Shown here: positions 20,249 to 32,057 of the stretch, one piece after another | How positions within the stretch are numbered: the stretch's first letter is position 1 | Layout: each line of letters begins with the position of its first letter | Origin: Bacteroidota bacterium | GTDB lineage: Bacteria; Bacteroidota; Ignavibacteria; Kapaibacteriales; UBA2268 | Reading direction: 5' to 3' | NCBI GenBank assembly: GCA_041666585.1 | Contig: JBAYGQ010000001.1 | Location: forward strand, 1-32,057 | DNA length: 32,057 nucleotides | The notes under the pieces: model-generated | Told to the model about the DNA's origin: nothing | The model's input: the letters and a program-made list of their open reading frames with translations, nothing else | Database searches by the model: none | Translations under genes and position numbers: made by a program

Positions 20249-22837
20249 TTACACAGGCAGTTCCTTTTCCAAATAACATTCATCACCCTCAAATAACACT
20301 TTTATGTTAACACGCGTTTTGTAATTTAGTATATCGGGTAACTCTATATGGATGAGATTGTTTTGCCAACCGCTTCTCGTTACAATCATAGATCCGTAAT
20401 ATTCTTTTTTTATCATTCTCCACGATCTTACTTTATCCTCTAAATTCCTTTCTTCAACGAAGATATCGTTTATTTTCTTTTCTCCTTTGTCAATTCGGAT
20501 ATTAATACCGGTATATCGGTTTCTATCTAAGTCAACAATCATAAAATCGTTATCCCCTTCATAAGGATATTTTATTGATACGTCTCTAGCATTTAGACTG
20601 ATATCAGACTGACAATATCCATTATAAAGATCAAAACTATTTCCGATAATTACCGGATTAGATTTTTGAATATAAGAATTTAATGTTGATGTGTAATTTG
20701 GATAAACATTTTTTGTATCGTCCCAATTAATATATATTGGATGAAAATTATTCGGTTGATTGTAAAAAGTGAGATATAACGCATCGGGCCCATTAGTAAT
20801 GATCGATGCATCCGGATGTTTGTTAAGATAGTTTCTTAATTGATTATATATATTCTCATAAAAAACCTTGTCTATTGGAAACAATCTGATCAATTTTAAT
20901 ACTGACAAATCATTAACTGTCAAATAATTATCATTCAATCTCATGACCCCCCATTGAATACGTTTTATTATTACAGGGCTAAATACGGAAAAAAACATAG
21001 ACAGTAAAATAATTATTCTTACATATGAATCTATTATTGTATGATTATTATGGAGATTATTTTTATTATTGAAATTACACATACGCATGCTTAGTGCGTA
21101 AAAAACATATACAGTTACTCCAATCATAGGATAAGCTGCCCAATATACATGCCACTCACAAACAACAGGATAATATTGCGTCCAAGATGCTAATGAAACT
21201 AGAATTATAACCAATAACAACTCTCTTTTTGAATTAGTCTTTCTCTCTTTCAAAAAATGATATATCGTCCAAATGAAAAAAATTATACAAATAATTGGTA
21301 TAAGCACCCATAGAAAATCCATAAAAGTGGGAAAAAGATCATTCAAAATTTCAAGAGACAGATATCCTTTCCCAACTCTCTGTCCAAATTGGTAAGGTAG
21401 TATAACCGATTGTAAGAACCAGTCATTTAATGCTCGGTTTGAAATAAGCCATATAATAAATGAAAAATGTATAATGACAGTTCCAGATATAAAATACGCC
21501 AGATTCTTTAAAATACTAGAAATACTTTGAAATTTATTTTTTATCGTTTTTAGTGCGAAATATCCTAAATAGGCTAGGAATAGGAAAATACCAACCGGTT
21601 GTCTACACCAAAAGGTCAAAGCAACCGCTACGCCTGATAGAAATAAATATTTTTGTTTGCCTTGTTTTGACTCAATACTTTTTATAAATATATATAACGA
21701 TAATGTTTGGAAAAACAATGAATATACTGAAGACCAAGGAATTACAATCCAGATCAGGTAAGTTCCCAACAAAATAAGCATAAAGCAAGAAAGTGTTGCT
21801 AAATATCGAGGCATGATTCTTACCCAAATAAACCAAAGGACAACAGATGATAAAGCATAGAACAGAGCGGTGAATAGTTTGATAACAATCAGATAATTTC
21901 CGAATATTTTTAAAGCGCCAGCTTGAATATATGTTGTCAGTGCACCGTATTGTGTAAAAGTGTCTCTAAAAAGCACTTTTCCGGATACGACATCAAGAGC
22001 GGGCTTCAACATAATTCCATCATGATGAGGGTCTACGGATATAAAAGAAAACAGTCCGGAAACCAAAAAAGTAGCGATAAATATAATAAACGGAAGTAAT
22101 AGATATAAGTGTTTAATTTTACGAATAGTCTCGATATAACGATTAAGCATTAAACCGAACCGTTCAAATCTGTCCAAAATAAAAACCAATATCATCGGAA
22201 TTATAGACAGGAAAATAATGAGGATAAGTTCAGTCAAATTAATGTAGTGGGAAAATTTTAGTATCAGATAGTTGAATAATAATCCGGGATCATGAAAAAG
22301 CTCGGCTTTAGAATATTTATATTTTGTTTCGAATACGGGATTAAAGGCACTAATTGTTATAGCATTTCCGGGTTTACCGTTTAACGATTCAATTTCAAAA
22401 ATATAGGTCTTTCCGGAGGAATTAGGGATTACTGGAAAACCAAAAGTGAATAATTCGTCAGGTAAAAATTGATCTGCATGATATAGATTGTCATAATACC
22501 ACTCGTCCGTATTTTTTTCTTTTAACCGAAAATCAATCAATTCTGTATTTTTGCCTCCATAGGAGTTTCCGAAACGAAAAGCAAGTATTCCGAGGTTGTT
22601 CTCGCGGGATTCAAATTCGCCAATTATTTTTTCACCTTTTAAAATTTCGCCCTTTTTCCATTGTGCTAGATTAGTTAGAGCGTGTTTTTCTACATTTATC
22701 GTAAAATTTTTGAATCTGATATCATCTCTTGCGTTTGTGAATATTACTGAGCAGAAAATTATCAAAAATATACAAAAACAAATAGGAAAACAGAAAAATG
22801 TCTTCGATCTTAAATCTAATACTTTGTATTCTTTCAT
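20249..22837 (-). CDS. Large (862 aa) polytopic membrane protein: N-terminal anchored ectodomain, multi-helix core and C-terminal soluble domain; putative GT-C-fold glycosyltransferase
   Basis: One N-terminal helix (FFCFPICFCIFLIIFCSVIF), a roughly 170-aa beta-rich segment, at least 12 hydrophobic helices and a roughly 240-aa hydrophilic tail. The loop motif VDPHHDGIMLKPALDV loosely recalls the FDEVHFGK loop-1 motif of the PMT/GT39 family. GGGAG lies just upstream of the ATG. Confidence 0.7.
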   Translation of the reverse strand: MKEYKVLDLRSKTFFCFPICFCIFLIIFCSVIFTNARDDIRFKNFTINVEKHALTNLAQWKKGEILKGEKIIGEFESRENNLGILAFRFGNSYGGKNTELIDFRLKEKNTDEWYYDNLYHADQFLPDELFTFGFPVIPNSSGKTYIFEIESLNGKPGNAITISAFNPVFETKYKYSKAELFHDPGLLFNYLILKFSHYINLTELILIIFLSIIPMILVFILDRFERFGLMLNRYIETIRKIKHLYLLLPFIIFIATFLVSGLFSFISVDPHHDGIMLKPALDVVSGKVLFRDTFTQYGALTTYIQAGALKIFGNYLIVIKLFTALFYALSSVVLWFIWVRIMPRYLATLSCFMLILLGTYLIWIVIPWSSVYSLFFQTLSLYIFIKSIESKQGKQKYLFLSGVAVALTFWCRQPVGIFLFLAYLGYFALKTIKNKFQSISSILKNLAYFISGTVIIHFSFIIWLISNRALNDWFLQSVILPYQFGQRVGKGYLSLEILNDLFPTFMDFLWVLIPIICIIFFIWTIYHFLKERKTNSKRELLLVIILVSLASWTQYYPVVCEWHVYWAAYPMIGVTVYVFYALSMRMCNFNNKNNLHNNHTIIDSYVRIIILLSMFFSVFSPVIIKRIQWGVMRLNDNYLTVNDLSVLKLIRLFPIDKVFYENIYNQLRNYLNKHPDASIITNGPDALYLTFYNQPNNFHPIYINWDDTKNVYPNYTSTLNSYIQKSNPVIIGNSFDLYNGYCQSDISLNARDVSIKYPYEGDNDFMIVDLDRNRYTGINIRIDKGEKKINDIFVEERNLEDKVRSWRMIKKEYYGSMIVTRSGWQNNLIHIELPDILNYKTRVNIKVLFEGDECYLEKELPV

Positions 22838-22863: not shown

Positions 22864-22885
22864 ATTATACTTCTTTTGTTATAAT
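22864..22885. promoter_or_regulatory. Candidate back-to-back divergent -10 boxes between the 862-aa membrane protein gene and rfbF
   Basis: TATAAT at 22880-22885 on the + strand, 8 nt before the rfbF ATG, with no SD. TATAAT on the - strand at 22869..22864, 26 nt before ATG 22837, with GGGAG in the leader. The AT-rich background makes chance matches likely. Confidence 0.3.
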
Positions 22886-22893
22886 TGCATGAA

Positions 22894-23670
22894 ATGAAAA
22901 CAATTATCCTATGCGGAGGAGCAGGAACACGGTTGAGAGAAGAAACGGAATTTAAACCTAAACCGATGGTTTTAATTGGCAATAAACCTATCATTTGGCA
23001 CATAATGAAGTATTTTTCAACTTTTGGATATAACGAGTTTATACTTGCACTCGGTTATAAAGCTGATTATGTCAAGGATTTCTTTCTAAATCAAAAAGCA
23101 TTTACCTCTGATTTTACCCTTGATACAAGTAACCATAAAACGGTCTTCTATTTAGAAAATAGGTCAAATGTAGACAACTTCAAAATTACCTTCGTTGACA
23201 CAGGACTCCATACCCTACCCGGTGAAAGAATTCTTATGTGTGAAAAATATATCCCAAAAAATGATAAATATTTTATGGTAACTTATGGAGATGGAGTAAC
23301 TGATATAAAAATTGATGATTTGATTAAATTTCATAAAAAACAGAAAACTATCGGAACAATTAGCGGAATACATCCACGATTTAAATATGGGGTTACAAAA
23401 ACTGATAATGACAATTTTGTGACGGATTTCAATGAAAAACCAGTACTTTCGGATTGGGTAAATGGAGGCTATATGATTTTTGATAAACGATTCTTCGGAT
23501 ATATCAAACCCGGAGAGACTGAACATAACGCCCTAAAAAGGTTATCAAATAAAAAACAATTATCATTATATAAGCATGAAGGATTCTGGTTTGCCGTAGA
23601 TACGAACAAAGAACTGGATGAGTTGAATCAATTGTGGAATGCGGGAAATCCGCCATGGAAAAAATGGTAA
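22894..23670 (+). CDS. rfbF: Glucose-1-phosphate cytidylyltransferase
   Basis: MKTIILCGGAGTRLREETEFKPKPMVLIGNKPIIWHIMKYFSTFGYNEFILALGYKADYVKDFF is near-canonical RfbF/DdhA. Start taken at ATG 22894. The ORF-track start at 22885 is a TTG 3 codons upstream. Confidence 0.9.
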   Translation: MKTIILCGGAGTRLREETEFKPKPMVLIGNKPIIWHIMKYFSTFGYNEFILALGYKADYVKDFFLNQKAFTSDFTLDTSNHKTVFYLENRSNVDNFKITFVDTGLHTLPGERILMCEKYIPKNDKYFMVTYGDGVTDIKIDDLIKFHKKQKTIGTISGIHPRFKYGVTKTDNDNFVTDFNEKPVLSDWVNGGYMIFDKRFFGYIKPGETEHNALKRLSNKKQLSLYKHEGFWFAVDTNKELDELNQLWNAGNPPWKKW

Positions 23671-24626
23671 CTAATTTTTACGGTATAGCTGTTTTAGTCA
23701 CTGGAGGAACCGGATTTGTCGGTTCTCATCTTGTTGAAGAATTGATTCGACTTAAGGCTCGGGTTATAACAACATCTCACTATTCTCACCCCAAATCATA
23801 CTTTTTCTCTCAGGAATTAGGTAAAAAGGCAACCGTTGTTAAAACTAACATAGGCAACATTCATAATATTTATTCCTTATTGAATCACTACAAAGTCGAG
23901 TATATTTTTCATTTAGCAGCCCAACCATTAGTAGAAGTAGGATTTCGCTACCCTAAACGCACCTTGTATACAAATGTATTAGGTACCATAAATATTTTAG
24001 AAGCCGCAAGAAAATACAATAAAATCAGAGGAATTGTGGTCGCTTCCTCTGATAAAGCATACGGACCTCTCAATAAGGCCAAATACCTGGAAACTGATTC
24101 GTTATTGGGTGAACAACCTTATGAAGTATCCAAATCATGTGCAGATCTGATTTCTCAGGCTTATGTCAAAACATATGATTTACCCATTGTTGTTACCCGT
24201 TTTGGTAATATTTATGGAGAAGGAGATTTACATTATAACCGGATTGTGCCGGGAATAATGAAAGCTATTATCTGTAATAAAGTTTTAAAAATTAGAAGCA
24301 ACGGAAAATATATTCGAGATTATTTATATGTCAAAGACGTCATCAGCGGATACATCAATTTAATAACTAATATCGATAAGACAAAAGGGGAAGCATTCAA
24401 TTTCGGATCTGTAGAGAGTTTATCTGTAATTGATCTTATCAAGTTAATTGAAAAATCGTTAGACAAAAAGATCTCATATGAAATACTTGATAGTGTAAAA
24501 AATGAAATTCCTTATCAGTCCTTGGATGATTCAAAAATAAAAAATAGATTAGGCTGGCAGCAAGAATACAATCTTGCGTCTACCTCAAAAAATATATACT
24601 CGTGGTATAAAAAAACATTAGTTTAG
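23655..24626 (+). CDS. rfbG: Extended-SDR NDP-sugar 4,6-dehydratase, probable CDP-glucose 4,6-dehydratase
   Basis: VLVTGGTGFVGSHL, SSDKAYG, PYEVSKSCADL (the SDK.Y and SK.CA.L patterns resemble RfbG/DdhB). It lies immediately downstream of rfbF and overlaps its end. The start could be ATG 23655 or 23664. Confidence 0.75.
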   Translation: MEKMVTNFYGIAVLVTGGTGFVGSHLVEELIRLKARVITTSHYSHPKSYFFSQELGKKATVVKTNIGNIHNIYSLLNHYKVEYIFHLAAQPLVEVGFRYPKRTLYTNVLGTINILEAARKYNKIRGIVVASSDKAYGPLNKAKYLETDSLLGEQPYEVSKSCADLISQAYVKTYDLPIVVTRFGNIYGEGDLHYNRIVPGIMKAIICNKVLKIRSNGKYIRDYLYVKDVISGYINLITNIDKTKGEAFNFGSVESLSVIDLIKLIEKSLDKKISYEILDSVKNEIPYQSLDDSKIKNRLGWQQEYNLASTSKNIYSWYKKTLV

Positions 24627-25579
24627 ACCTGTATGTTTAATCTCTTCTTGTGATCGTTTAGGATCTCGTCTATTACGTAAGTAGGACGATCTTTCACTTC
24701 TTCGAAAATTATTTGGATGTATTTCCCTAGGATACTTATTCCGAGCATTTGGATACCGCCGAAGAATATTATCGCTGTAAGTAATGGGATAGAAGCGTTA
24801 ACTGGATTTCCAATTAAAAATACGGTAATAAGATAAAATAATAAAAAAATAAAGGAGACAATTACTAACATGAAACCAAGGGTCGTCATTACGTCTAAAG
24901 GTACGAAAGAAAAACCCAAAATTCCTCTTTGTGAATCTTTTATGTAATCCAGTAAATTATTTTTACTATTACCGTATCGTCTGGCTTTACGTTCATAAAT
25001 CACCTCTTTTACCGAAAATCCTGCCCATGCTCTGAGTCCTCTGAAGAACCGGTTTCTTTCAGGTAAATCGTTGATAACATTTAGTACTTTTCTATCTAAT
25101 AAACAAAAACTACCTGCGTTAAGAGGCATATTAATATTGGCGAGTTTATTAAATATCTTATAAAAACTTTTTCTTACAATTCGCATCAGTAAAGTATCTT
25201 GAATTTTATTACGTACTCCTATTACTACTTGAGATCCTTTTTCCCACTCTCTAATAAATATCGGAATAACTTCAGGCGGATCCTGGAGATCACAATCTAC
25301 GATTGTCACAGCATCTCCTTGTGCTTGCATCATTGCTGCTTGTGATGAATACTCAGAGGTAAAATTCCTAGACATCAATAGCACCGTAACTTTTTTATCC
25401 TTTTTTGCGATTTTTTTCAGGATGCTTCGTGAATTATCCTGACTACAATTATCCGTAAATATTATTTCGTAATCGTAATTTCGAAGAGTATTAAATAGTT
25501 TGACAATTTCTGTATAAGCGTTTTCAATATTTAGCTCTTCATTATATACGGGAATAATTACGGTTATTAATTTCTTCAT
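24623..25579 (-). CDS. GT2 polyprenol-phosphate glycosyltransferase (GtrB/ArnC/DPM1-like) with two C-terminal TM helices
   Basis: 318 aa. VIIPVYNEELNIE, FTDNCSQDNS, TIVDCDLQDPPE. C-terminal helices LGFMLVIVSFIFLLFYLITVFLI and LLTAIIFFGGIQMLGISILGKYI. Confidence 0.88.
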   Translation of the reverse strand: MKKLITVIIPVYNEELNIENAYTEIVKLFNTLRNYDYEIIFTDNCSQDNSRSILKKIAKKDKKVTVLLMSRNFTSEYSSQAAMMQAQGDAVTIVDCDLQDPPEVIPIFIREWEKGSQVVIGVRNKIQDTLLMRIVRKSFYKIFNKLANINMPLNAGSFCLLDRKVLNVINDLPERNRFFRGLRAWAGFSVKEVIYERKARRYGNSKNNLLDYIKDSQRGILGFSFVPLDVMTTLGFMLVIVSFIFLLFYLITVFLIGNPVNASIPLLTAIIFFGGIQMLGISILGKYIQIIFEEVKDRPTYVIDEILNDHKKRLNIQV

Positions 25580-26370
25580 ACGTTTGAATTTTTCACTCTT
25601 TTTTTCAGCATTTGTATCCTCTTATCATCTTCTAGGAATATTCGCGAATAATAATTTTTTTTATTCTCTAACCACAAAAGTTCAAAAGTGTTAGCTTTGA
25701 TAATACCATCTCCTAACTTTTGGAAACTTTTTGGCACTTTAAAAACTACTTTTCTTGTTTCGAAATAGTCTAATAAGTTTTTTGACGATAATTTCTTTAT
25801 GAAAGGAACTGCCTCTAAAGCGATCCCCCCACCCATAGCCGTTTTTAAACCCTTCTTCTTAGCCTTAATAAATATATCTTCCGCAATTTTGTAAATCTGA
25901 TCACAGTTTATTTGGTCTCGAGACAAACCTAAAGAACCCGACAAATCAACTCTACCCAGAGTGATTTTTCCTAAAATCTTCATAAGTTTTACGTTCAAGA
26001 TATCGTGAATATTATGATACGCCTGAATTGTTTCAATGTTAACTCCAAAAAGAATAGTTTTTCTGAGATCCTCCGGATAATGAGTTATCACTGCTTGAAG
26101 GAATTTTTCCAAGGCATAGGCACTTTCTACCATAGGTGCAACAAGCCCAGAGACTCCGATATGCTGGGATTCGAACATATCTGTAATAGCTTCAGGTCCC
26201 CCAATTTTTAGCACTAAACCTAACCCAACTCTTTCTACGATTTCCTTCAATCTCATAATTTCGCACAATCTCGACGCCTCGGCTTCAAATTCTGCTTTTA
26301 CTTCCACCACACCATAATGCTTCTTTAATTCAGTTAACACGTTAACCATCTTTATTTCCAAAGTGTTCAT
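25576..26370 (-). CDS. HpcH/HpaI aldolase / citrate-lyase-beta-like TIM-barrel protein
   Basis: 264 aa. APMVESAYALEKF (metal-binding Glu strand), FGVNIETIQAYHNIHDIL and LGRVDLSGSLGL (G..DLS.SLG) follow the order and spacing of family motifs. This is a by-eye assignment. Confidence 0.7.
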   Translation of the reverse strand: MNTLEIKMVNVLTELKKHYGVVEVKAEFEAEASRLCEIMRLKEIVERVGLGLVLKIGGPEAITDMFESQHIGVSGLVAPMVESAYALEKFLQAVITHYPEDLRKTILFGVNIETIQAYHNIHDILNVKLMKILGKITLGRVDLSGSLGLSRDQINCDQIYKIAEDIFIKAKKKGLKTAMGGGIALEAVPFIKKLSSKNLLDYFETRKVVFKVPKSFQKLGDGIIKANTFELLWLENKKNYYSRIFLEDDKRIQMLKKRVKNSNV

Positions 26371-26412: not shown

Positions 26413-27507
26413 TTAGTTAATAAAACTCGAGATACATTGATAAAATTCTGAATAATCGGATTTATACTCGTCTACATTATAATCTAATATTTTATTCATT
26501 CTTAAATTATTATCAGGCAATACTAATGCGAGGTCTTTTGTAGTTCTCTTTTTATCGTACATCATTTTTCTTAATATCCCGTCTCTATTAAAATAATCTT
26601 TTTTTATTTTAAGGATTTTAAAGGGAATTCCGGGAAATAATATTTTTTTATTAATATAATTAAATATATTTTTGTTCAACCATCCTTTTCTGAAAGAAAC
26701 TAAATTTGAGAATATAATTCCGAAAATAATAGCAGTTCCGTGAGGAATATTATAATCACTATATGATTCCAATGCATGACCGAAACAATGTCCATAGTTA
26801 AGAAGATTTCTCTTTCCATAATCCTTCTCATCACCAATCATGTAATCTAATTTTATTTTCATTGATTCCTTTATTATATTAATAAGAATTTCATTATCTC
26901 TGCAACTTATTAACTTGTTAAGCTTGGTATGAATTTGTTCCAACTTATTCATTGAATTTTTATCCATAAGTAGTAATTTAATTATCTCTCCCAAACCGCT
27001 ATAGTAATCTATTTCTTTCAAAGTTTTTAGAAATGAGACGTCTATGATAATATCTTCAGGAGAGTAAAATGTTCCCAGAACGTTCTTGTAGGATTTAAAA
27101 TTGAGCGATGTTTTTAACCCTATGGCACTATCTGCCTGTGAAAGCAAAGTAGTTGGAATATATATCCAACGAATACCTCTATATAATGTTGATGCTGTAA
27201 ATCCTACAACATCTTGATTGATACCTCCACCGAAAGAAATTACCTTCAAATTTTTTTTAGCGGAGAATTTAAGCAGTTTATTAGCCAAATGGGATACGGT
27301 GGAAAAGTTTTTTGTTTTTTCGTCTAGAGTAAGAATAATTATGTGCTTCTTCGAAAAACCATTAAAAATATTATTTTTATATAATTTATATACGTTTCTC
27401 CCTACAACAATTATCGAATTTTGATTATTCGCCCAGAGTTCTTTGATGAAATCTAAATTTTCAGAAAATTTAACATTTATGTTGCCAATTTTGGTTCTTA
27501 TTAACAT
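26413..27507 (-). CDS. 3-dehydroquinate synthase-like sugar-phosphate cyclase superfamily protein (divergent)
   Basis: 364 aa. FGGGINQDVVGFTASTLYRGIRWIYIPTTLLSQADSAIGLKTSLNF..YKNVLGTFYSP, GLGEIIKLLL, GKRNLLNYGHCFGHALE, IPHGTAIIFGI. NAD-binding and Glu/His/His metal motifs are present. GGK->GLK and HGEAV->HGTAI deviate from housekeeping AroB. Confidence 0.8.
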   Translation of the reverse strand: MLIRTKIGNINVKFSENLDFIKELWANNQNSIIVVGRNVYKLYKNNIFNGFSKKHIIILTLDEKTKNFSTVSHLANKLLKFSAKKNLKVISFGGGINQDVVGFTASTLYRGIRWIYIPTTLLSQADSAIGLKTSLNFKSYKNVLGTFYSPEDIIIDVSFLKTLKEIDYYSGLGEIIKLLLMDKNSMNKLEQIHTKLNKLISCRDNEILINIIKESMKIKLDYMIGDEKDYGKRNLLNYGHCFGHALESYSDYNIPHGTAIIFGIIFSNLVSFRKGWLNKNIFNYINKKILFPGIPFKILKIKKDYFNRDGILRKMMYDKKRTTKDLALVLPDNNLRMNKILDYNVDEYKSDYSEFYQCISSFIN

Positions 27508-27514
27508 ACATTTT

Positions 27515-28183
27515 TTACTGACAAGTAAAACCTCCGTCTACAATGATATTTGCACCGTTTATATAAGTATTTTTATCCGAAATTAAAAAACACACGACCT
27601 CAGCAATTTCATGAGGTGCCGCGAATCTCCCCATTGGAATACCTTGAGCAAGTAAAGCATTTTTTTGATCGCTATTTTTCCTTGTCAAATCCGTATCGGT
27701 AAATCCAGGTGAAACGGAATTAACCAATATATTATACGGACCGAGCTCTAAGGCTAAAGCTTTTGTAACACCATTAATACCGTGTTTTGTTGCAGTATAT
27801 AAAACCTGTTTTTTTCTCGCTACCAACCCAAAAATTGAGCTTATATTAACGATACGTCCCCACTTTTGTTTTTTCATTGTACTGATTAAACCTCCAATAA
27901 GGATAATTGGAGCGATTAGATTTGTTTCAAAATGTTTATAGCAATTTTCTATATCAATTTCATCGACAAATTGAGGTATATTTATTCCCGCGTTATTTAT
28001 AATAGCGTCAATATGCAGGTTTTTATTTCTTTGAATATACTGCTGGACTGAGCGTCTATCCGAAAGATCAAGTTCTTGTCGTCTCGGCGAAATAACGTAA
28101 TACTTTTCGTTTTTTAATTTATCACATACCTCTTTTCCTATCCCTCTGGATGCACCGGTTAGTAAAATTGTTCTATTATTCAT
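27515..28183 (-). CDS. Classical short-chain dehydrogenase/reductase (FabG-like ketoreductase)
   Basis: 222 aa. LLTGASRGIGKEV, NNAGIN, YTATKHG (YxxxK), IVDGGFTCQ. Confidence 0.85.
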   Translation of the reverse strand: MNNRTILLTGASRGIGKEVCDKLKNEKYYVISPRRQELDLSDRRSVQQYIQRNKNLHIDAIINNAGINIPQFVDEIDIENCYKHFETNLIAPIILIGGLISTMKKQKWGRIVNISSIFGLVARKKQVLYTATKHGINGVTKALALELGPYNILVNSVSPGFTDTDLTRKNSDQKNALLAQGIPMGRFAAPHEIAEVVCFLISDKNTYINGANIIVDGGFTCQ

Positions 28184-28192
28184 TTTACGATT

Positions 28193-29101
28193 TTAAATTT
28201 TAATTAAATTTATATAAGGATCTTTAATAATCTTATCTTTATCTAAGCTTGATATATTTTCTAAGTACCATTGATAAAGCAACCTAATCCCCTTTTCGAT
28301 ACTAGTGAATTTGAAATTCGGTAATTCGTTTTTTAACCTACTATTATCTGTAGTGTATTCCTTATTTAAATTTTTATTTCTTATAATTATTTCTGATTTA
28401 TGGCGGCTGATTTTATTTATTATCTTCGATATCGACAGCAAGTCAATTTTTTGGCCTGTCCCGATATTATATATGTTATGTTCAGTAGAACGATTGATAA
28501 AATAATCAACAATTGTAACCAGATCATCAGCATATAAATAATCAAAGTATACGTTCTGCACAATTTCGATCGGCAATTTATATATATTTTTTACTATTGC
28601 GTTGGAAATAAACTTAAATAAATAATTTTCATATTTACCATACACTCCAAACAATCTTAAACAAACAATCTTACTAGAATTACAAATATATTTTGAACAC
28701 ACATACTTATAAAATCCATACTCGTCACCGGGCACAGATCCATCGAAATCTTCCTCTTTTATTCTAACAATTGGATTCCTTTTGTCATATTCCGCACCTG
28801 AACCGAAAGTGATAATTTTATTTACACAATTTGAGCATCTTACTATGTTAAAAAATATCCGAAGATTAGTTTCTAATACTTTATTAAGGTTTAAAGTATC
28901 TCTTCCTCCACCCCTATTTGCACAATGAATGATAATTTCGATATTATTGTCTTTAATGTAATTTTCAACTTTTGCGGTATCTAACAAATCAAGCTCATCA
29001 TGCGTTGGGGAAAAAAGATTATACTTTTTTTCGAAATGTTCACATAAATTTCTTCCTATAAAACCTGAGGCACCGGTAATAAATATTTTTCTTTTACTCA
29101 T
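28193..29101 (-). CDS. Extended-SDR NAD-dependent NDP-sugar epimerase/reductase
   Basis: 302 aa. IFITGASGFIGRNL, HCANRGG, YKYVCSK (YxxxK). Confidence 0.8.
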   Translation of the reverse strand: MSKRKIFITGASGFIGRNLCEHFEKKYNLFSPTHDELDLLDTAKVENYIKDNNIEIIIHCANRGGGRDTLNLNKVLETNLRIFFNIVRCSNCVNKIITFGSGAEYDKRNPIVRIKEEDFDGSVPGDEYGFYKYVCSKYICNSSKIVCLRLFGVYGKYENYLFKFISNAIVKNIYKLPIEIVQNVYFDYLYADDLVTIVDYFINRSTEHNIYNIGTGQKIDLLSISKIINKISRHKSEIIIRNKNLNKEYTTDNSRLKNELPNFKFTSIEKGIRLLYQWYLENISSLDKDKIIKDPYINLIKI

Positions 29102-29731
29102 TTATCGGATCCTCGCAAAGATTAAAGTCTCAGTTTTAAATAATGAAGTAATTTTTGTGATTTTTGTATACCCGGCTAAATTTTGAACTTTCTCAATTTC
29201 AAAATGTTTGTTTATTACATTTATGAACTTATTTACCGTCCAATTATGTACGTGTGTTTTATCAAAAAATGATTTTCGTTGCAACAACATATTGATAATA
29301 TTTAGTAAATAATACTGTCTATATAATGAAAAGATTAGCACTCCACTCTTTTTTATTATAGATGGAATTACTTTATCCAGGAATTTCTCTCTATCCGAAT
29401 CTTTCATATGTTCGAGCATATTCAAACAGACGATAGCGTCTGCTTTTTTCAATTTCAATTTTCTTAAAGATATATCGGTTGCGTCTATGTTATAAAATCT
29501 ATTACTTTTATATTTATTTTTTGCATATTTTATAGCTTCAGAATTTATATCATACCCAACTGCCCCGAGAAAATTGGTGATATACCCCGTCCCGCAGCCA
29601 ATGTCATATATCAAAGGATTATCGAATCTGGATAAGACCTGATACTTGATCTGACGATACAATTCAACGTTATTCAAGTGTGAACTATTTTGAAGCGTGT
29701 AATATGATGTTTCCTTTCTCACTTTTTCCAT
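29102..29731 (-). CDS. Class I SAM-dependent methyltransferase
   Basis: 209 aa. IYDIGCGTGYI motif I, GYDINSEAI, IVCLNMLEHMKD. It overlaps the upstream gene by 13 nt. Confidence 0.8.
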   Translation of the reverse strand: MEKVRKETSYYTLQNSSHLNNVELYRQIKYQVLSRFDNPLIYDIGCGTGYITNFLGAVGYDINSEAIKYAKNKYKSNRFYNIDATDISLRKLKLKKADAIVCLNMLEHMKDSDREKFLDKVIPSIIKKSGVLIFSLYRQYYLLNIINMLLQRKSFFDKTHVHNWTVNKFINVINKHFEIEKVQNLAGYTKITKITSLFKTETLIFARIR

Positions 29732-31563
29732 AATGGAATTAACATATTTTTTACTAATTCATCTTTAGGAAGAAAAGGTGACATATCTTCAAGTGGAGGG
29801 GATGTAAAATTTCCCTCTGCGTCCTTTTTTGCGACTAATTTTGGATTGACAATCATTTCTTTAATCATATTAATATCGCATACGATCGGACCAGGATAAT
29901 TTAACACATATTTGATTTTATTACGCATTTCAGCGTGATTATGAACTCTTACCGCCTTTATTCCATAGGCTTCTGCAATTTTTACATAATCGGGACAACT
30001 CACTCCTGATTTTGGATCTGATGCCGTGTGCATTCCGCTGAATAAATTATTCTGCGTATTTCTTATAGATAAATATCCATCATTACTATAGACAAATAAT
30101 TTAATCGGGAGTTTATAATGCTTTATTACCTGCAACTCATGAATATTAAGTTGAAGACTACCATCTCCTTCAAAACATAGTACTCTTCTGCCTCGATCTG
30201 CAAACGCCGCACCTATTGCGGCAGGCAATCCATACCCCATCTGTGAACATCCATTATTCAAAATAACTCGCTGACCATTTTTAATATATAAGGCTTGATA
30301 AGAACAATTTAACGGCCCTGTTCCGTTAGATACGACTATTATCTCGTCATTTTCAATTAGCTTTCCTAGTGTGTCTATCATGCAATATGGATTGACGAAT
30401 TTCTTTTCGCTCCAATATTCCTTTAATACTATCGGATACTTTGAATTCATATTCTTACAATAATCTAACCAATATGAGATATCCAAATTTAATTTTATTT
30501 TTGATAGCTGATGTGTCATTTCTGAAATAAATTGTTTTGCATCGTAATTTACGGGTAAATCCGTTTTAATAAATGGTTTTTTCAACTCACTTCGGTCAAT
30601 ATCAACGGTTACTTTATATGCGTCACGTGCAAATGATTTATAGGAAAAACCTATGGTTCTTATATCCAATCTAGCGCCAATTGAAATCAATAGATCGCAG
30701 TTTTGGATGATGAAATTAGCTGCTCTTTGACCAAGAGTGTGTGCTCGGCCAAAATACTGCGGATGTGAAGAAGGAATAATATCATAACCGGCATAACTGC
30801 TTAGAACGGGAATTTTCATTAAACTTATGAGATTTAGGAATTCTTTCACTGCACCGCTCAAACGAATTCCGTTACCTGCATATATTACCGGTCTTTTCGA
30901 TGATTTTAACTTTGTTAATATTTGTAAAACAATCTCAGTTAATTTTTTTGGGTTTTTCTCAAATGGGATTGTAACCTCAGACTCCTTGAATCTCCTAAGT
31001 TTGTTCCTATCAACATGAACCCCTTGAACGTCTATCGGAATATCTAACCAAACGGGTCCCTGTCTACCGGATTTTGCTAAAAAGAGCGCTTTTTCAAGGT
31101 GATACCGAACATCATTCGGATTCATAATCGTAACCGCATATTTTGTCACCGGTTTTACCATATCAATGATATTAATTTCCTGGTCACCTAGTTGCCTATA
31201 TCCCCTTCCAGCTCCAATAGTTTCTCTCTTAACCTGACCGGATATAACAAGCATAGGGATGGAATCAAGCCACGCCCCTACAACACCTGTAATAGCATTC
31301 GTACCACCAGGTCCGGTTGTTACTAAACAAACGCCAATATCTTCCGAAATCCTCGAATATGCCTCGGCAGCGATGGCACACGCCTGTTCATGATGATTAC
31401 AAACGTAATGAATTTTCTTACTTTTGCCTACAGAGTCAATTAAGTGAATATTTCCCCCACCCGAAATAAGAAATATATGCCTCACGTTAATTTCTTCTAA
31501 AAAGGAAATAATATAATCTGAGATTTTTACAACTTGTGGCTTATTGCCGATTACTTTTCGCAT
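29719..31563 (-). CDS. Thiamine-diphosphate-dependent enzyme of the acetolactate-synthase large-subunit family, YerE-like candidate
   Basis: Three-domain layout: N-terminal ISDYIISFLEEINVRHIFLISGGGNIHLIDS...VTTGPGGTNA, then the C-terminal ThDP motif GDGSLQLNIHELQ...VYSNDGY. Start placed at ATG 31563. The ORF-track start at 31569 is a TTG. Confidence 0.85.
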   Translation of the reverse strand: MRKVIGNKPQVVKISDYIISFLEEINVRHIFLISGGGNIHLIDSVGKSKKIHYVCNHHEQACAIAAEAYSRISEDIGVCLVTTGPGGTNAITGVVGAWLDSIPMLVISGQVKRETIGAGRGYRQLGDQEINIIDMVKPVTKYAVTIMNPNDVRYHLEKALFLAKSGRQGPVWLDIPIDVQGVHVDRNKLRRFKESEVTIPFEKNPKKLTEIVLQILTKLKSSKRPVIYAGNGIRLSGAVKEFLNLISLMKIPVLSSYAGYDIIPSSHPQYFGRAHTLGQRAANFIIQNCDLLISIGARLDIRTIGFSYKSFARDAYKVTVDIDRSELKKPFIKTDLPVNYDAKQFISEMTHQLSKIKLNLDISYWLDYCKNMNSKYPIVLKEYWSEKKFVNPYCMIDTLGKLIENDEIIVVSNGTGPLNCSYQALYIKNGQRVILNNGCSQMGYGLPAAIGAAFADRGRRVLCFEGDGSLQLNIHELQVIKHYKLPIKLFVYSNDGYLSIRNTQNNLFSGMHTASDPKSGVSCPDYVKIAEAYGIKAVRVHNHAEMRNKIKYVLNYPGPIVCDINMIKEMIVNPKLVAKKDAEGNFTSPPLEDMSPFLPKDELVKNMLIPLWKK

Positions 31564-31568
31564 ATTCA

Positions 31569-31582
31569 AGTATTATAATACT
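31569..31582. promoter_or_regulatory. Perfect 14-bp palindrome AGTATTATAATACT carrying a TATAAT on each strand, in a 30-bp divergent intergenic region
   Basis: TATAAT at 31574-31579 on the + strand, 14 nt before the rfbH ATG. TATAAT on the - strand at 31577..31572, 8 nt before ATG 31563. Neither start codon has a Shine-Dalgarno sequence. Confidence 0.35.
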
Positions 31583-31593
31583 CACTACTAATT

Positions 31594-32057
31594 ATGAATA
31601 CTAACCCTTCCCCTGGCCCTAAGTATATTCCCGCAAGCGGAAAAGTCTATAATCGGGAAGAAATTAATAATGCCATTGATGCAGTAAAAGATGGATGGTG
31701 GACCGAAGGCAGATTTGCAAAACAGTTTGAAAAAGACTTCAGTAACTATTTAGGACTAAAGTATGTGTCACTAGTTAATTCGGGTTCCTCTGCAAATCTA
31801 TTAGCGGTAGCGTCACTCTCCTCTCAAGTATTCGGAGAAAGAAGGTTGAAACCAGGCGACGAATTTATTACCAGTCCCGTAGCATTTCCAACCACCGTTA
31901 ATCCCGGATTAATCTATCAACTTAAACCTGTATTCGTTGATATTAAGTTAAATACACTCAATATCGATGCGTCTAAAATTGAAAAGGCGATCACTAAAAA
32001 AACAAAATTGATAATAATTGCGCATACCCTTGGTATACCCTTTGACTTAAAAACGAT
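31594..32057 (+). CDS. rfbH: CDP-6-deoxy-4-hexulose 3-dehydrase (E1; RfbH/DdhC), N-terminal part only
   Basis: Own translation: MNTNPSPGPKYIPASGKVYNREEINNAIDAVKDGWWTEGRFAKQFEKDFSNYLG...NSGSSANLLAVASLSS..FGERRLKPGDEFITSPVAFPTTVNPG...IIAHTLGIPFDL. The pattern is RfbH-type within the DegT family. It is open at the window end, so it is missing from the ORF track. Confidence 0.85.
   Translation, partial: MNTNPSPGPKYIPASGKVYNREEINNAIDAVKDGWWTEGRFAKQFEKDFSNYLGLKYVSLVNSGSSANLLAVASLSSQVFGERRLKPGDEFITSPVAFPTTVNPGLIYQLKPVFVDIKLNTLNIDASKIEKAITKKTKLIIIAHTLGIPFDLKT

Follow-up and report, generated by a model that had tools for sequence, protein, structure and literature searches.

A JanthE-like thiamine diphosphate-dependent carboligase and a candidate pathway to a long-branched sugar in an uncultured Bacteroidota bacterium

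The sequence analysed here, hereafter the window, is one entire contig (JBAYGQ010000001.1; 32,057 nucleotides) of assembly GCA_041666585.1 from a Bacteroidota bacterium (Ignavibacteria, Kapaibacteriales), an assembly of 562 contigs and 3.05 Mb with a G+C content of 35.6% and a completeness of approximately 80%. Toward its right end, a gene for a thiamine diphosphate (ThDP)-dependent enzyme leads an operon of seven genes and is transcribed divergently from rfbH, a gene of the CDP-3,6-dideoxyhexose pathway. Our analysis places this enzyme in the already known YerE/JanthE family, and its neighbours suggest that it forms a long sugar branch rather than a two-carbon one.

Gene organization of the locus

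The operon runs from the ThDP gene through genes for a methyltransferase, an extended short-chain dehydrogenase/reductase (SDR), a classical SDR, a 3-dehydroquinate synthase (DHQS)-like enzyme and an HpcH-like aldolase to that of a family 2 glycosyltransferase (GT2), which closes it. Successive genes overlap or are separated by no more than 42 nt, and the methyltransferase reading frame shares a 13-nt overlap with the ThDP gene. The genes that bear on the predicted pathway are as follows, with the source of each assignment in parentheses.

29719 to 31569, minus strand: ThDP-dependent carboligase, YerE-like, JanthE-like branch (Pfam, PDB, NCBIfam, IQ-TREE, motifs)
31594 to 32055, plus strand: rfbH (E1, CDP-6-deoxy-4-hexulose 3-dehydrase), N-terminal 154 amino acids, cut by the contig end (NCBIfam RfbH)
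29102 to 29731, minus strand: class I S-adenosylmethionine (SAM)-dependent methyltransferase, 209 amino acids (Pfam Methyltransf_12/25/31/11)
28193 to 29101, minus strand: extended SDR, 302 amino acids, candidate YerF/ErwF-type reductase of the branch 1'-ketone (Pfam Epimerase, RmlD_sub_bind)
27515 to 28183, minus strand: classical SDR ketoreductase, 222 amino acids, partner of the DHQS-like enzyme (Pfam adh_short)
26413 to 27507, minus strand: DHQS-like enzyme, 364 amino acids (TIGR04425, aroB models)
25576 to 26370, minus strand: predicted class II (metal-dependent) pyruvate aldolase of HpcH/HpaI fold, 264 amino acids (Pfam HpcH_HpaI, 34.7 bits)
24623 to 25579, minus strand: GT2 polyprenyl-phosphate glycosyltransferase, PgfS/ArnC/GtrB-like (Pfam Glycos_transf_2)
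23634 to 24626, plus strand: rfbG-like NDP-hexose 4,6-dehydratase (NCBIfam)
22885 to 23670, plus strand: rfbF-like glucose-1-phosphate cytidylyltransferase (NCBIfam)

The ThDP gene and rfbH are parted by a spacer of only 30 bp (31564-31593), which holds the perfect palindrome AGTATTATAATACT and in which TATAAT can be read on both strands. From its sequence, this spacer may be a bidirectional promoter or operator shared by the two genes.

Identity of the ThDP enzyme

The reading frame of the ThDP gene is uninterrupted and encodes 616 amino acids from a TTG at 31569 or 614 from an ATG at 31563. Its product contains all three domains of ThDP enzymes of the pyruvate-oxidase/AHAS (acetohydroxyacid synthase) type (TPP_N, TPP_M and TPP_C, with Pfam E-values of 8e-36, 2e-33 and 1e-33), with an intact cofactor motif (GDGSLQLN...VYSNDGY) and catalytic Glu (in HHEQ); the enzyme probably contains FAD. 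Its top relative in the PDB is JanthE (8rph; 448 bits, E = 4e-133), to which residues 13-610 align, followed by lower matches to PpYerE (5ahk; 280 bits) and plant AHAS (243 bits).

YerE-like enzymes are routinely mislabelled as acetolactate synthases by genome pipelines, a label that context and phylogeny correct here. The best NCBIfam matches of the window enzyme are indeed named acetolactate synthase large subunit (E = 9e-113), and its gene is the sole acetolactate synthase-like gene of the assembly, as would be expected if it were an anabolic or catabolic acetolactate synthase of amino acid or acetoin metabolism that lies in a glycan locus by chance. However, the enzyme scores only 377.7 bits with TIGR00118, against a cut-off of 538.35 and against 634-875 bits for true AHAS from ten other genomes, and it likewise falls below the cut-offs of the other AHAS equivalog models. 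In an alignment of 13 sequences, the residues that we take to be functional marks of AHAS are all substituted in the window enzyme: AFQE by GDQE, MLGMHGT (including MHG) by GRAHTLGQ, RFDDR by RLDIR, and the specificity Trp by Thr. Furthermore, the C-terminal tail SPPLEDMSPFLP is common to the window enzyme and the JanthE clade, and is lacking in AHAS. The window holds no branched-chain amino acid genes, ilvN and ilvC included, and the same goes for the approximately 80%-complete assembly as a whole, which has no ilvN, ilvC or second acetolactate synthase-like gene. The gene shares its operon with sugar genes in a synteny that is kept across phyla. The assembly also has no aroB above the model cut-off, and the source organism may be auxotrophic for both branched-chain and aromatic amino acids.

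Our main tree (IQ-TREE, LG+C20+F+G4) comprised 50 rows, among which YpYerE, ErwE and the mycobacterial MMAR_2332, the published enzymes discussed below, were not included. The AHAS sequences formed one clade (100/99), and a separate clade, also supported at 100/99, united PpYerE, JanthE, a mycobacterial subclade and the window enzyme. Within the latter, the window enzyme was sister (100/100) to the homologs from three related loci, L001, L155 and L002; L001, the nearest syntenic locus, comes from a metagenome-assembled genome (MAG) of an uncultured gammaproteobacterium. A FastTree analysis of 206 rows was consistent with this topology.

The evidence supports assignment of the window enzyme, by its sequence, to the YerE family as a JanthE-like ThDP carboligase, and an acetolactate synthase is extremely improbable. 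Its predicted activity is the coupling of a 2-keto acid to a ketone acceptor to give a tertiary alcohol. A sequence-only reading of this DNA had already described a YerE-like enzyme with an intact ThDP motif, divergent from rfbH and remote from any ilv small subunit or other branched-chain amino acid gene, and each of these observations is borne out, the enzyme class by profile scores, solved relatives, phylogeny and gene neighbourhoods. That reading would have been abandoned had phylogeny placed the enzyme firmly inside the acetolactate synthases; it lies outside them.

The predicted acceptor

The rfbH fragment scores 189 bits over 148 residues with the NCBIfam RfbH model and is 69% identical to its full-length ortholog in L001, which itself reaches 634 bits (cut-off 423). 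A search of the other 561 contigs did not find the missing 3' half. The top NCBIfam match of the rfbG-like product is CDP-glucose 4,6-dehydratase (198 bits; cut-off 278), and that of the rfbF-like product is G1P_cyt_trans (249 bits; cut-off 300).

A scan of species-representative genomes recovered 64 loci with relatives of the ThDP enzyme (31-64% identity) from many phyla, including candidate-phyla-radiation bacteria and two archaeal MAGs. When all fetched loci were pooled and duplicates removed, there were 218 distinct ThDP loci, 96 of which had at least 5 kb of sequence on both sides; rfbH or rfbF lay within 10 kb of the ThDP gene in 78 of these 96, and rfbH in 66. Linkage to CDP-3,6-dideoxyhexose genes is the defining context of YerE-like enzymes (PMC9306805, PMC12247030). 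The acceptor is thus probably CDP-3,6-dideoxy-4-ketohexose, the product of RfbF, RfbG and RfbH, as the sequence-only reading had proposed.

Two variations on this context were seen. Five loci, from Pelagibacteraceae single-cell genomes and a gammaproteobacterial MAG (L039, L046, L047, L050 and L052), place the ThDP homolog among genes for a methyltransferase, a DJ-1/PfpI protein, DegT aminotransferases and a zinc alcohol dehydrogenase, with no rfbF or aldolase detected. Eight others (L003, L005, L013, L017, L031, L032, L035 and L054) carry two ThDP paralogs within 10 kb, which could reflect the synthesis of two branched sugars or a specialisation of the paralogs by donor or acceptor.

The donor cassette

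Three consecutive genes of the operon, encoding the classical SDR, the DHQS-like enzyme and the aldolase, form a cassette that recurs across phyla and that accompanies the ThDP gene in its nearest relatives (L001, L002 and L155). The aldolase has a weak Pfam match and had none in the PDB by sequence. Its AlphaFold2 model (pLDDT 92.9) is most similar by Foldseek to HpaI, HpcH and YfaU (E = 1e-9, TM approximately 0.6), and on the evidence of this model, which confirms the HpcH fold, the 264-amino-acid protein is a predicted class II pyruvate aldolase. The Glu of NxET and the Asp of GRxD are conserved in it, presumably at the metal-ligand positions of HpaI. Members of this aldolase family were found at more than 531 loci, and the gene adjoining ThDP homologs typically encodes either an HpcH-type aldolase or a NeuB-like synthase, both of which form 2-keto acids. 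We propose that the window aldolase synthesizes the 2-keto acid donor.

The DHQS-like enzyme scores 361 bits with TIGR04425 (cut-off 400) and 253 bits with the aroB model (cut-off 305), and its nearest PDB entries are DHQS, at approximately 150 bits. It keeps the metal and substrate motifs of DHQS, including GxKT, KN and R..LNxGHxxGHA, which we take, on the model of the A. nidulans enzyme, to belong to the site that binds 3-deoxy-D-arabino-heptulosonate 7-phosphate (DAHP). A housekeeping AroB was considered and rejected, given the score below the AroB cut-off and the glycan-operon context. The family also occurs beside the cassette in candidate-phyla-radiation bacteria and in an archaeon. Among the 80 closest DHQS-like loci, an SDR gene lies immediately upstream in 76, an aldolase gene is present in 48 and a ThDP gene in 49. 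The classical SDR at 27515-28183 is therefore tied to the DHQS-like gene and is not a YerF analogue.

The well-flanked aldolase loci contained the DHQS-like gene only (38 loci), a HAD phosphatase gene only (11), both (one) or neither (10). This alternation suggests two ways to dispose of a terminal phosphate: hydrolysis by the HAD enzyme would leave a hydroxyl, whereas DHQS-type chemistry (oxidation, elimination, reduction) and then the SDR would leave a methyl group. Among cultured carriers, Effusibacillus consociatus CCUG 53762 has the aldolase together with the DHQS-like gene, and Gabonibacter massiliensis GM7 has the aldolase but not the DHQS-like gene; on this model, the branch would terminate in a methyl group in the former and a hydroxymethyl group in the latter. 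Our literature search returned nothing on TIGR04425 or on a DHQS-like gene in caryophyllose clusters, and no description of a non-cyclising, phosphate-eliminating activity in the DHQS superfamily. We put somewhat short of an even chance on the DHQS-like enzyme and its SDR having this activity, as a terminal deoxygenase for ulosonic acids. A more distant pair of genes for an SDR and a DHQS-like enzyme was seen in Leptospira borgpetersenii serovar Javanica (L139, 7334-11987), among genes for a CMP-type cytidylyltransferase, a GFO/IDH/MocA oxidoreductase and a D-2-hydroxyacid dehydrogenase, with neither a ThDP enzyme nor an aldolase. It may represent a distinct route to a modified ulosonic acid, and its neighbours fit the view that such pairs act on ulosonic acids.

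Reduction, methylation and transfer

The extended SDR resembles nucleotide-sugar ketoreductases, its nearest solved relatives being dTDP-4-dehydrorhamnose reductase (RmlD) and GDP-fucose synthase. Besides the window, 13 related loci have its ortholog directly next to the ThDP gene, with a median gap of 15 bp, and we regard the enzyme as the candidate for the YerF-like role. The methyltransferase has a weak PDB match (1y8c), and no counterpart of it was found in the first 64 related loci searched, in which other methyltransferase families are present instead.

The GT2 protein scores 232 bits with the NCBIfam PgfS model and 133 bits with that of ArnC, both under the cut-offs, and has orthologs in 26 of the 64 related loci. 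Just past rfbF, at 20249-22837, lies a gene for an 862-amino-acid PMT_2 (GT-C-like) membrane protein, and PMT_2 proteins recur near ThDP homologs elsewhere (L010, L026, L030, L045 and L062). The GT2 gene at the end of the operon, together with the recurring PMT_2 proteins, suggests that the branched sugar passes via an undecaprenyl-phosphate carrier and is attached outside the cytoplasm.

Proposed pathway and alternative products

Modelled on the known pathway, RfbF, RfbG and RfbH with a reductase would make CDP-3,6-dideoxy-4-ketohexose. The HpcH-type aldolase would join pyruvate to a phosphorylated aldose, most simply erythrose 4-phosphate, to give a 2-keto-3-deoxy-heptonate 7-phosphate, which the DHQS-like enzyme would transiently oxidise with elimination of the phosphate; reduction of the resulting carbonyl by the paired SDR would yield an omega-deoxy donor of the 3,7-dideoxyheptulosonate type. 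The ThDP enzyme, as its family membership and context imply, would decarboxylate this donor and add the acyl-anion equivalent to C-4 of the CDP-ketosugar, creating a tertiary alcohol. The extended SDR would then reduce the branch 1'-ketone, the methyltransferase would methylate the product, and the GtrB/ArnC-like GT2 would load the sugar onto undecaprenyl phosphate for attachment to a glycan. We thus think it reasonably probable, though well short of assured, that the operon, through its long-donor cassette, makes a caryophyllose-like, methylated 3,6-dideoxy-4-C-(polyhydroxyhexyl)hexose and not yersiniose.

Yersiniose would be the product if the enzyme were a YerE proper that transfers two carbons from pyruvate to CDP-3,6-dideoxy-4-ketohexose, with the extended SDR reducing the resulting acetyl group and the aldolase, SDR and DHQS-like trio serving an unrelated purpose. 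The window enzyme does share a clade with PpYerE and JanthE, rfbF, rfbG and rfbH are present, the ketoreductase gene follows the ThDP gene with the methyltransferase gene alone between them, and both JanthE and MyGE accept pyruvate (PMC12247030, PMC9306805). Against this, the cassette lies in the same operon here and stays with the ThDP gene in L001, L002 and L155, a 2-keto-acid-forming enzyme is the usual neighbour throughout the family, and a Mycobacterium carries the same set of genes, in parallel to those for caryophyllose. JanthE, moreover, converts longer 2-keto acids better than pyruvate, which gives its lowest conversions (PMC12247030, Table 1). We consider yersiniose unlikely. A sugar that bears a carbocycle or a fused ring, akin to caryose or bradyrhizose, would arise if the DHQS-like enzyme cyclised its substrate, the ThDP enzyme either taking a dehydroquinate-like cyclic ketone as acceptor or supplying a branch that is later cyclised. 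The conserved metal and substrate motifs of true DHQS would accord with such a reaction, as would the name of the nearest model, TIGR04425 (putative cyclizing sugar phosphate phospholyase), and the ability of JanthE to take cyclic ketones in vitro (PMC12188165). However, the exchange of the DHQS-like/SDR pair for a HAD phosphatase is easier to reconcile with loss of a terminal phosphate than with construction of a ring, the branch to which mycobacterial loci of this gene content correspond is open-chain and omega-deoxy (PMC5706390), and the linkage to rfbH points to a CDP-ketosugar acceptor. Cyclisation is accordingly a long shot; if it did occur, a sugar with a carbocycle like that of quinate, or with a ring fused at its C-4, would represent a new class of bacterial monosaccharide built by ThDP branching and DHQS-type cyclisation.

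Several points nevertheless weigh against a caryophyllose-like product. The direct basis of the proposal is gene identities and neighbourhoods, from which we infer every chemical step, and the functions of the ThDP protein and of the trio are predicted from the genes. The DHQS-like enzyme retains all the residues that we take to bind DAHP, including the Arg of R..LNxGH, and the enol-pyranose intermediates of DHQS cyclise spontaneously, so that a carbocyclic product is possible. On the acceptor side, rfbH is truncated, and the rfbF and rfbG products score under their equivalog cut-offs. No open reading frame for an AscD/RfbI-type E3 reductase (2Fe-2S/Fer2 and FNR-like) was found by motif scan in the window, the assembly or 379 related loci, which leaves the 3-deoxygenation step without its classical partner, and E1 must therefore use another electron donor. 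The pooled locus counts are biased, the loci having been fetched with cassette genes as queries, although the first, unbiased set of 64 loci shows the same rfbH/rfbF pattern. JanthE itself also accepts pyruvate (PMC12247030). Finally, the link to caryophyllose runs via the synteny of M. bohemicum and the literature, not via the M. marinum locus itself.

The sequence-only reading had ended in a two-carbon unit from pyruvate, and thus in yersiniose; in the light of the long-donor cassette and the donor preference of JanthE, this part is probably wrong. Its annotation of two SDRs holds, and of the two genes that it offered for the role of YerF, the extended SDR at 28193-29101 remains the candidate, whereas the SDR at 27515-28183 goes with the DHQS-like gene. 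The methyltransferase, DHQS-like and HpcH-like genes of the operon had found no use in that interpretation.

Remainder of the contig

The rest of the contig (520-17028) is an O-antigen locus of the ABC-transporter (Wzm/Wzt) type. It contains a gene set for a nonulosonic acid of the legionaminic acid type, comprising a PseB/LegB-like dehydratase, a DegT aminotransferase, a PglD-like acetyltransferase, NeuC, NeuB and two CMP-type cytidylyltransferases, and also a HisH/HisF-like pair and an asparagine-synthase-like gene, whose predicted products could add amide or amidine modifications.

Implications

The cassette permits a rare 12-carbon branched O-antigen sugar to be predicted from sequence in an uncultured bacterium. 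In mycobacteria, branched sugars of this type have an effect on immune recognition (PMC9306805, PMC5706390). The enzyme family is sought as a source of biocatalysts for chiral tertiary alcohols, for which a JanthE relative that combines a canonical GDG motif with a defined donor pathway is a useful candidate. The alternation of the DHQS-like/SDR pair with a HAD phosphatase also offers a testable idea for the origin of the terminal-deoxy end of caryophyllose-type branches, which the available part of the published scheme leaves open (PMC9306805).

Comparison with known systems

JanthE of Janthinobacterium sp. HH01 (PDB 8rph, 8rpi and 8rpj) is an aldehyde-ketone carboligase that uses C3 to C6 2-keto acids and whose physiological substrates are unknown (PMC12188165). 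It aligns with the window enzyme from end to end and shares with it the NDGY..I..TQ motif and the C-terminal tail SPPLEDxSPxxP. In contrast to the canonical GDG and RLDIR of the window enzyme, however, JanthE has an unusual CDG ThDP motif and a Pro at the RLAIP position, and in our tree it forms a long separate branch and is not the sister of the window enzyme. In Yersinia pseudotuberculosis, YpYerE attaches an acyl anion carried on ThDP to C-4 of CDP-3,6-dideoxy-4-keto-D-glucose, to yield a product that YerF goes on to reduce (PMC9306805, PMC12247030). The genes for this YerE and for PpYerE adjoin CDP-3,6-dideoxyhexose genes, as in the window, but PpYerE matches the window enzyme at only 280 bits and shows no C-terminal tail within the aligned stretch. 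The donor of YerE is pyruvate, C3 being the maximum, whereas the window operon has a dedicated long-donor cassette; YpYerE was compared by its published description.

For long acyl-branched sugars, Steitz et al. put forward a scheme in which a hydroxylated 2-keto acid, formed by an aldolase, is joined to a CDP-ketosugar by a YerE-like enzyme before a reductase completes the branch (PMC9306805). The erwiniose system of Pectobacterium atrosepticum (ErwE, ErwF, ErwI and ErwJ) has this logic in common with the window, with an aldolase-derived 4-hydroxy-2-oxo acid, ThDP coupling and a reductase; the donors of ErwE are 4-hydroxy-2-oxo acids, pyruvate being rejected (PMC9306805). The aldolase ErwI is of the BphI type, operates together with an acetaldehyde dehydrogenase and leads to a C4 branch, whereas the window has an HpcH-fold aldolase and the DHQS-like/SDR pair.

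Closer still in gene content are the caryophyllose-type clusters. Caryophyllose is a 3,6-dideoxy-4-C-(1,3,4,5-tetrahydroxyhexyl)hexose whose C6 branch is 2'-deoxy and ends in a methyl group (PMC5706390), and structures of this type are known only for M. marinum and a few other organisms (PMC5706390, PMC9306805). In M. marinum, knock-outs of MMAR_2331 (aldolase/citrate-lyase family), MMAR_2332 (ThDP enzyme) and MMAR_2333 (glycosyltransferase) abolish caryophyllose, and the cluster of R. palustris CGA009 adds a SAM methyltransferase (PMC9306805). As judged from these published descriptions, both clusters resemble the window in having a ThDP enzyme, an aldolase of the aldolase/citrate-lyase family, a reductase and CDP-ketosugar genes; the available parts of the published accounts of caryophyllose clusters mention no DHQS-like gene and assign it no role.

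Scans with an aldolase profile and with a high-G+C DNA pattern returned M. bohemicum and M. terramassiliense as the only mycobacteria among the matches listed, the pattern scan being the one that found the aldolase family in M. bohemicum. The M. bohemicum locus has the order rfbG, rfbH, rfbF, GT2, ThDP enzyme, aldolase, SDR and DHQS-like enzyme. Its last two genes at first appeared to be fused in a 561-amino-acid open frame, but a fusion was rejected, the list of open reading frames giving two overlapping genes. The mycobacterial ThDP enzymes are approximately 33% identical to the window enzyme and form a subclade of their own. The GT2-ThDP-aldolase order in M. bohemicum is the one expected from the gene numbers MMAR_2333, MMAR_2332 and MMAR_2331, and the caryophyllose branch is what a 3,7-dideoxyheptulosonate donor would yield once it had been coupled with decarboxylation and then reduced. 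The cassette of aldolase, SDR and DHQS-like enzyme in the window fits the synthesis of such a long 2-keto acid donor, and in this it matches the scheme put forward for erwiniose and caryophyllose (PMC9306805).

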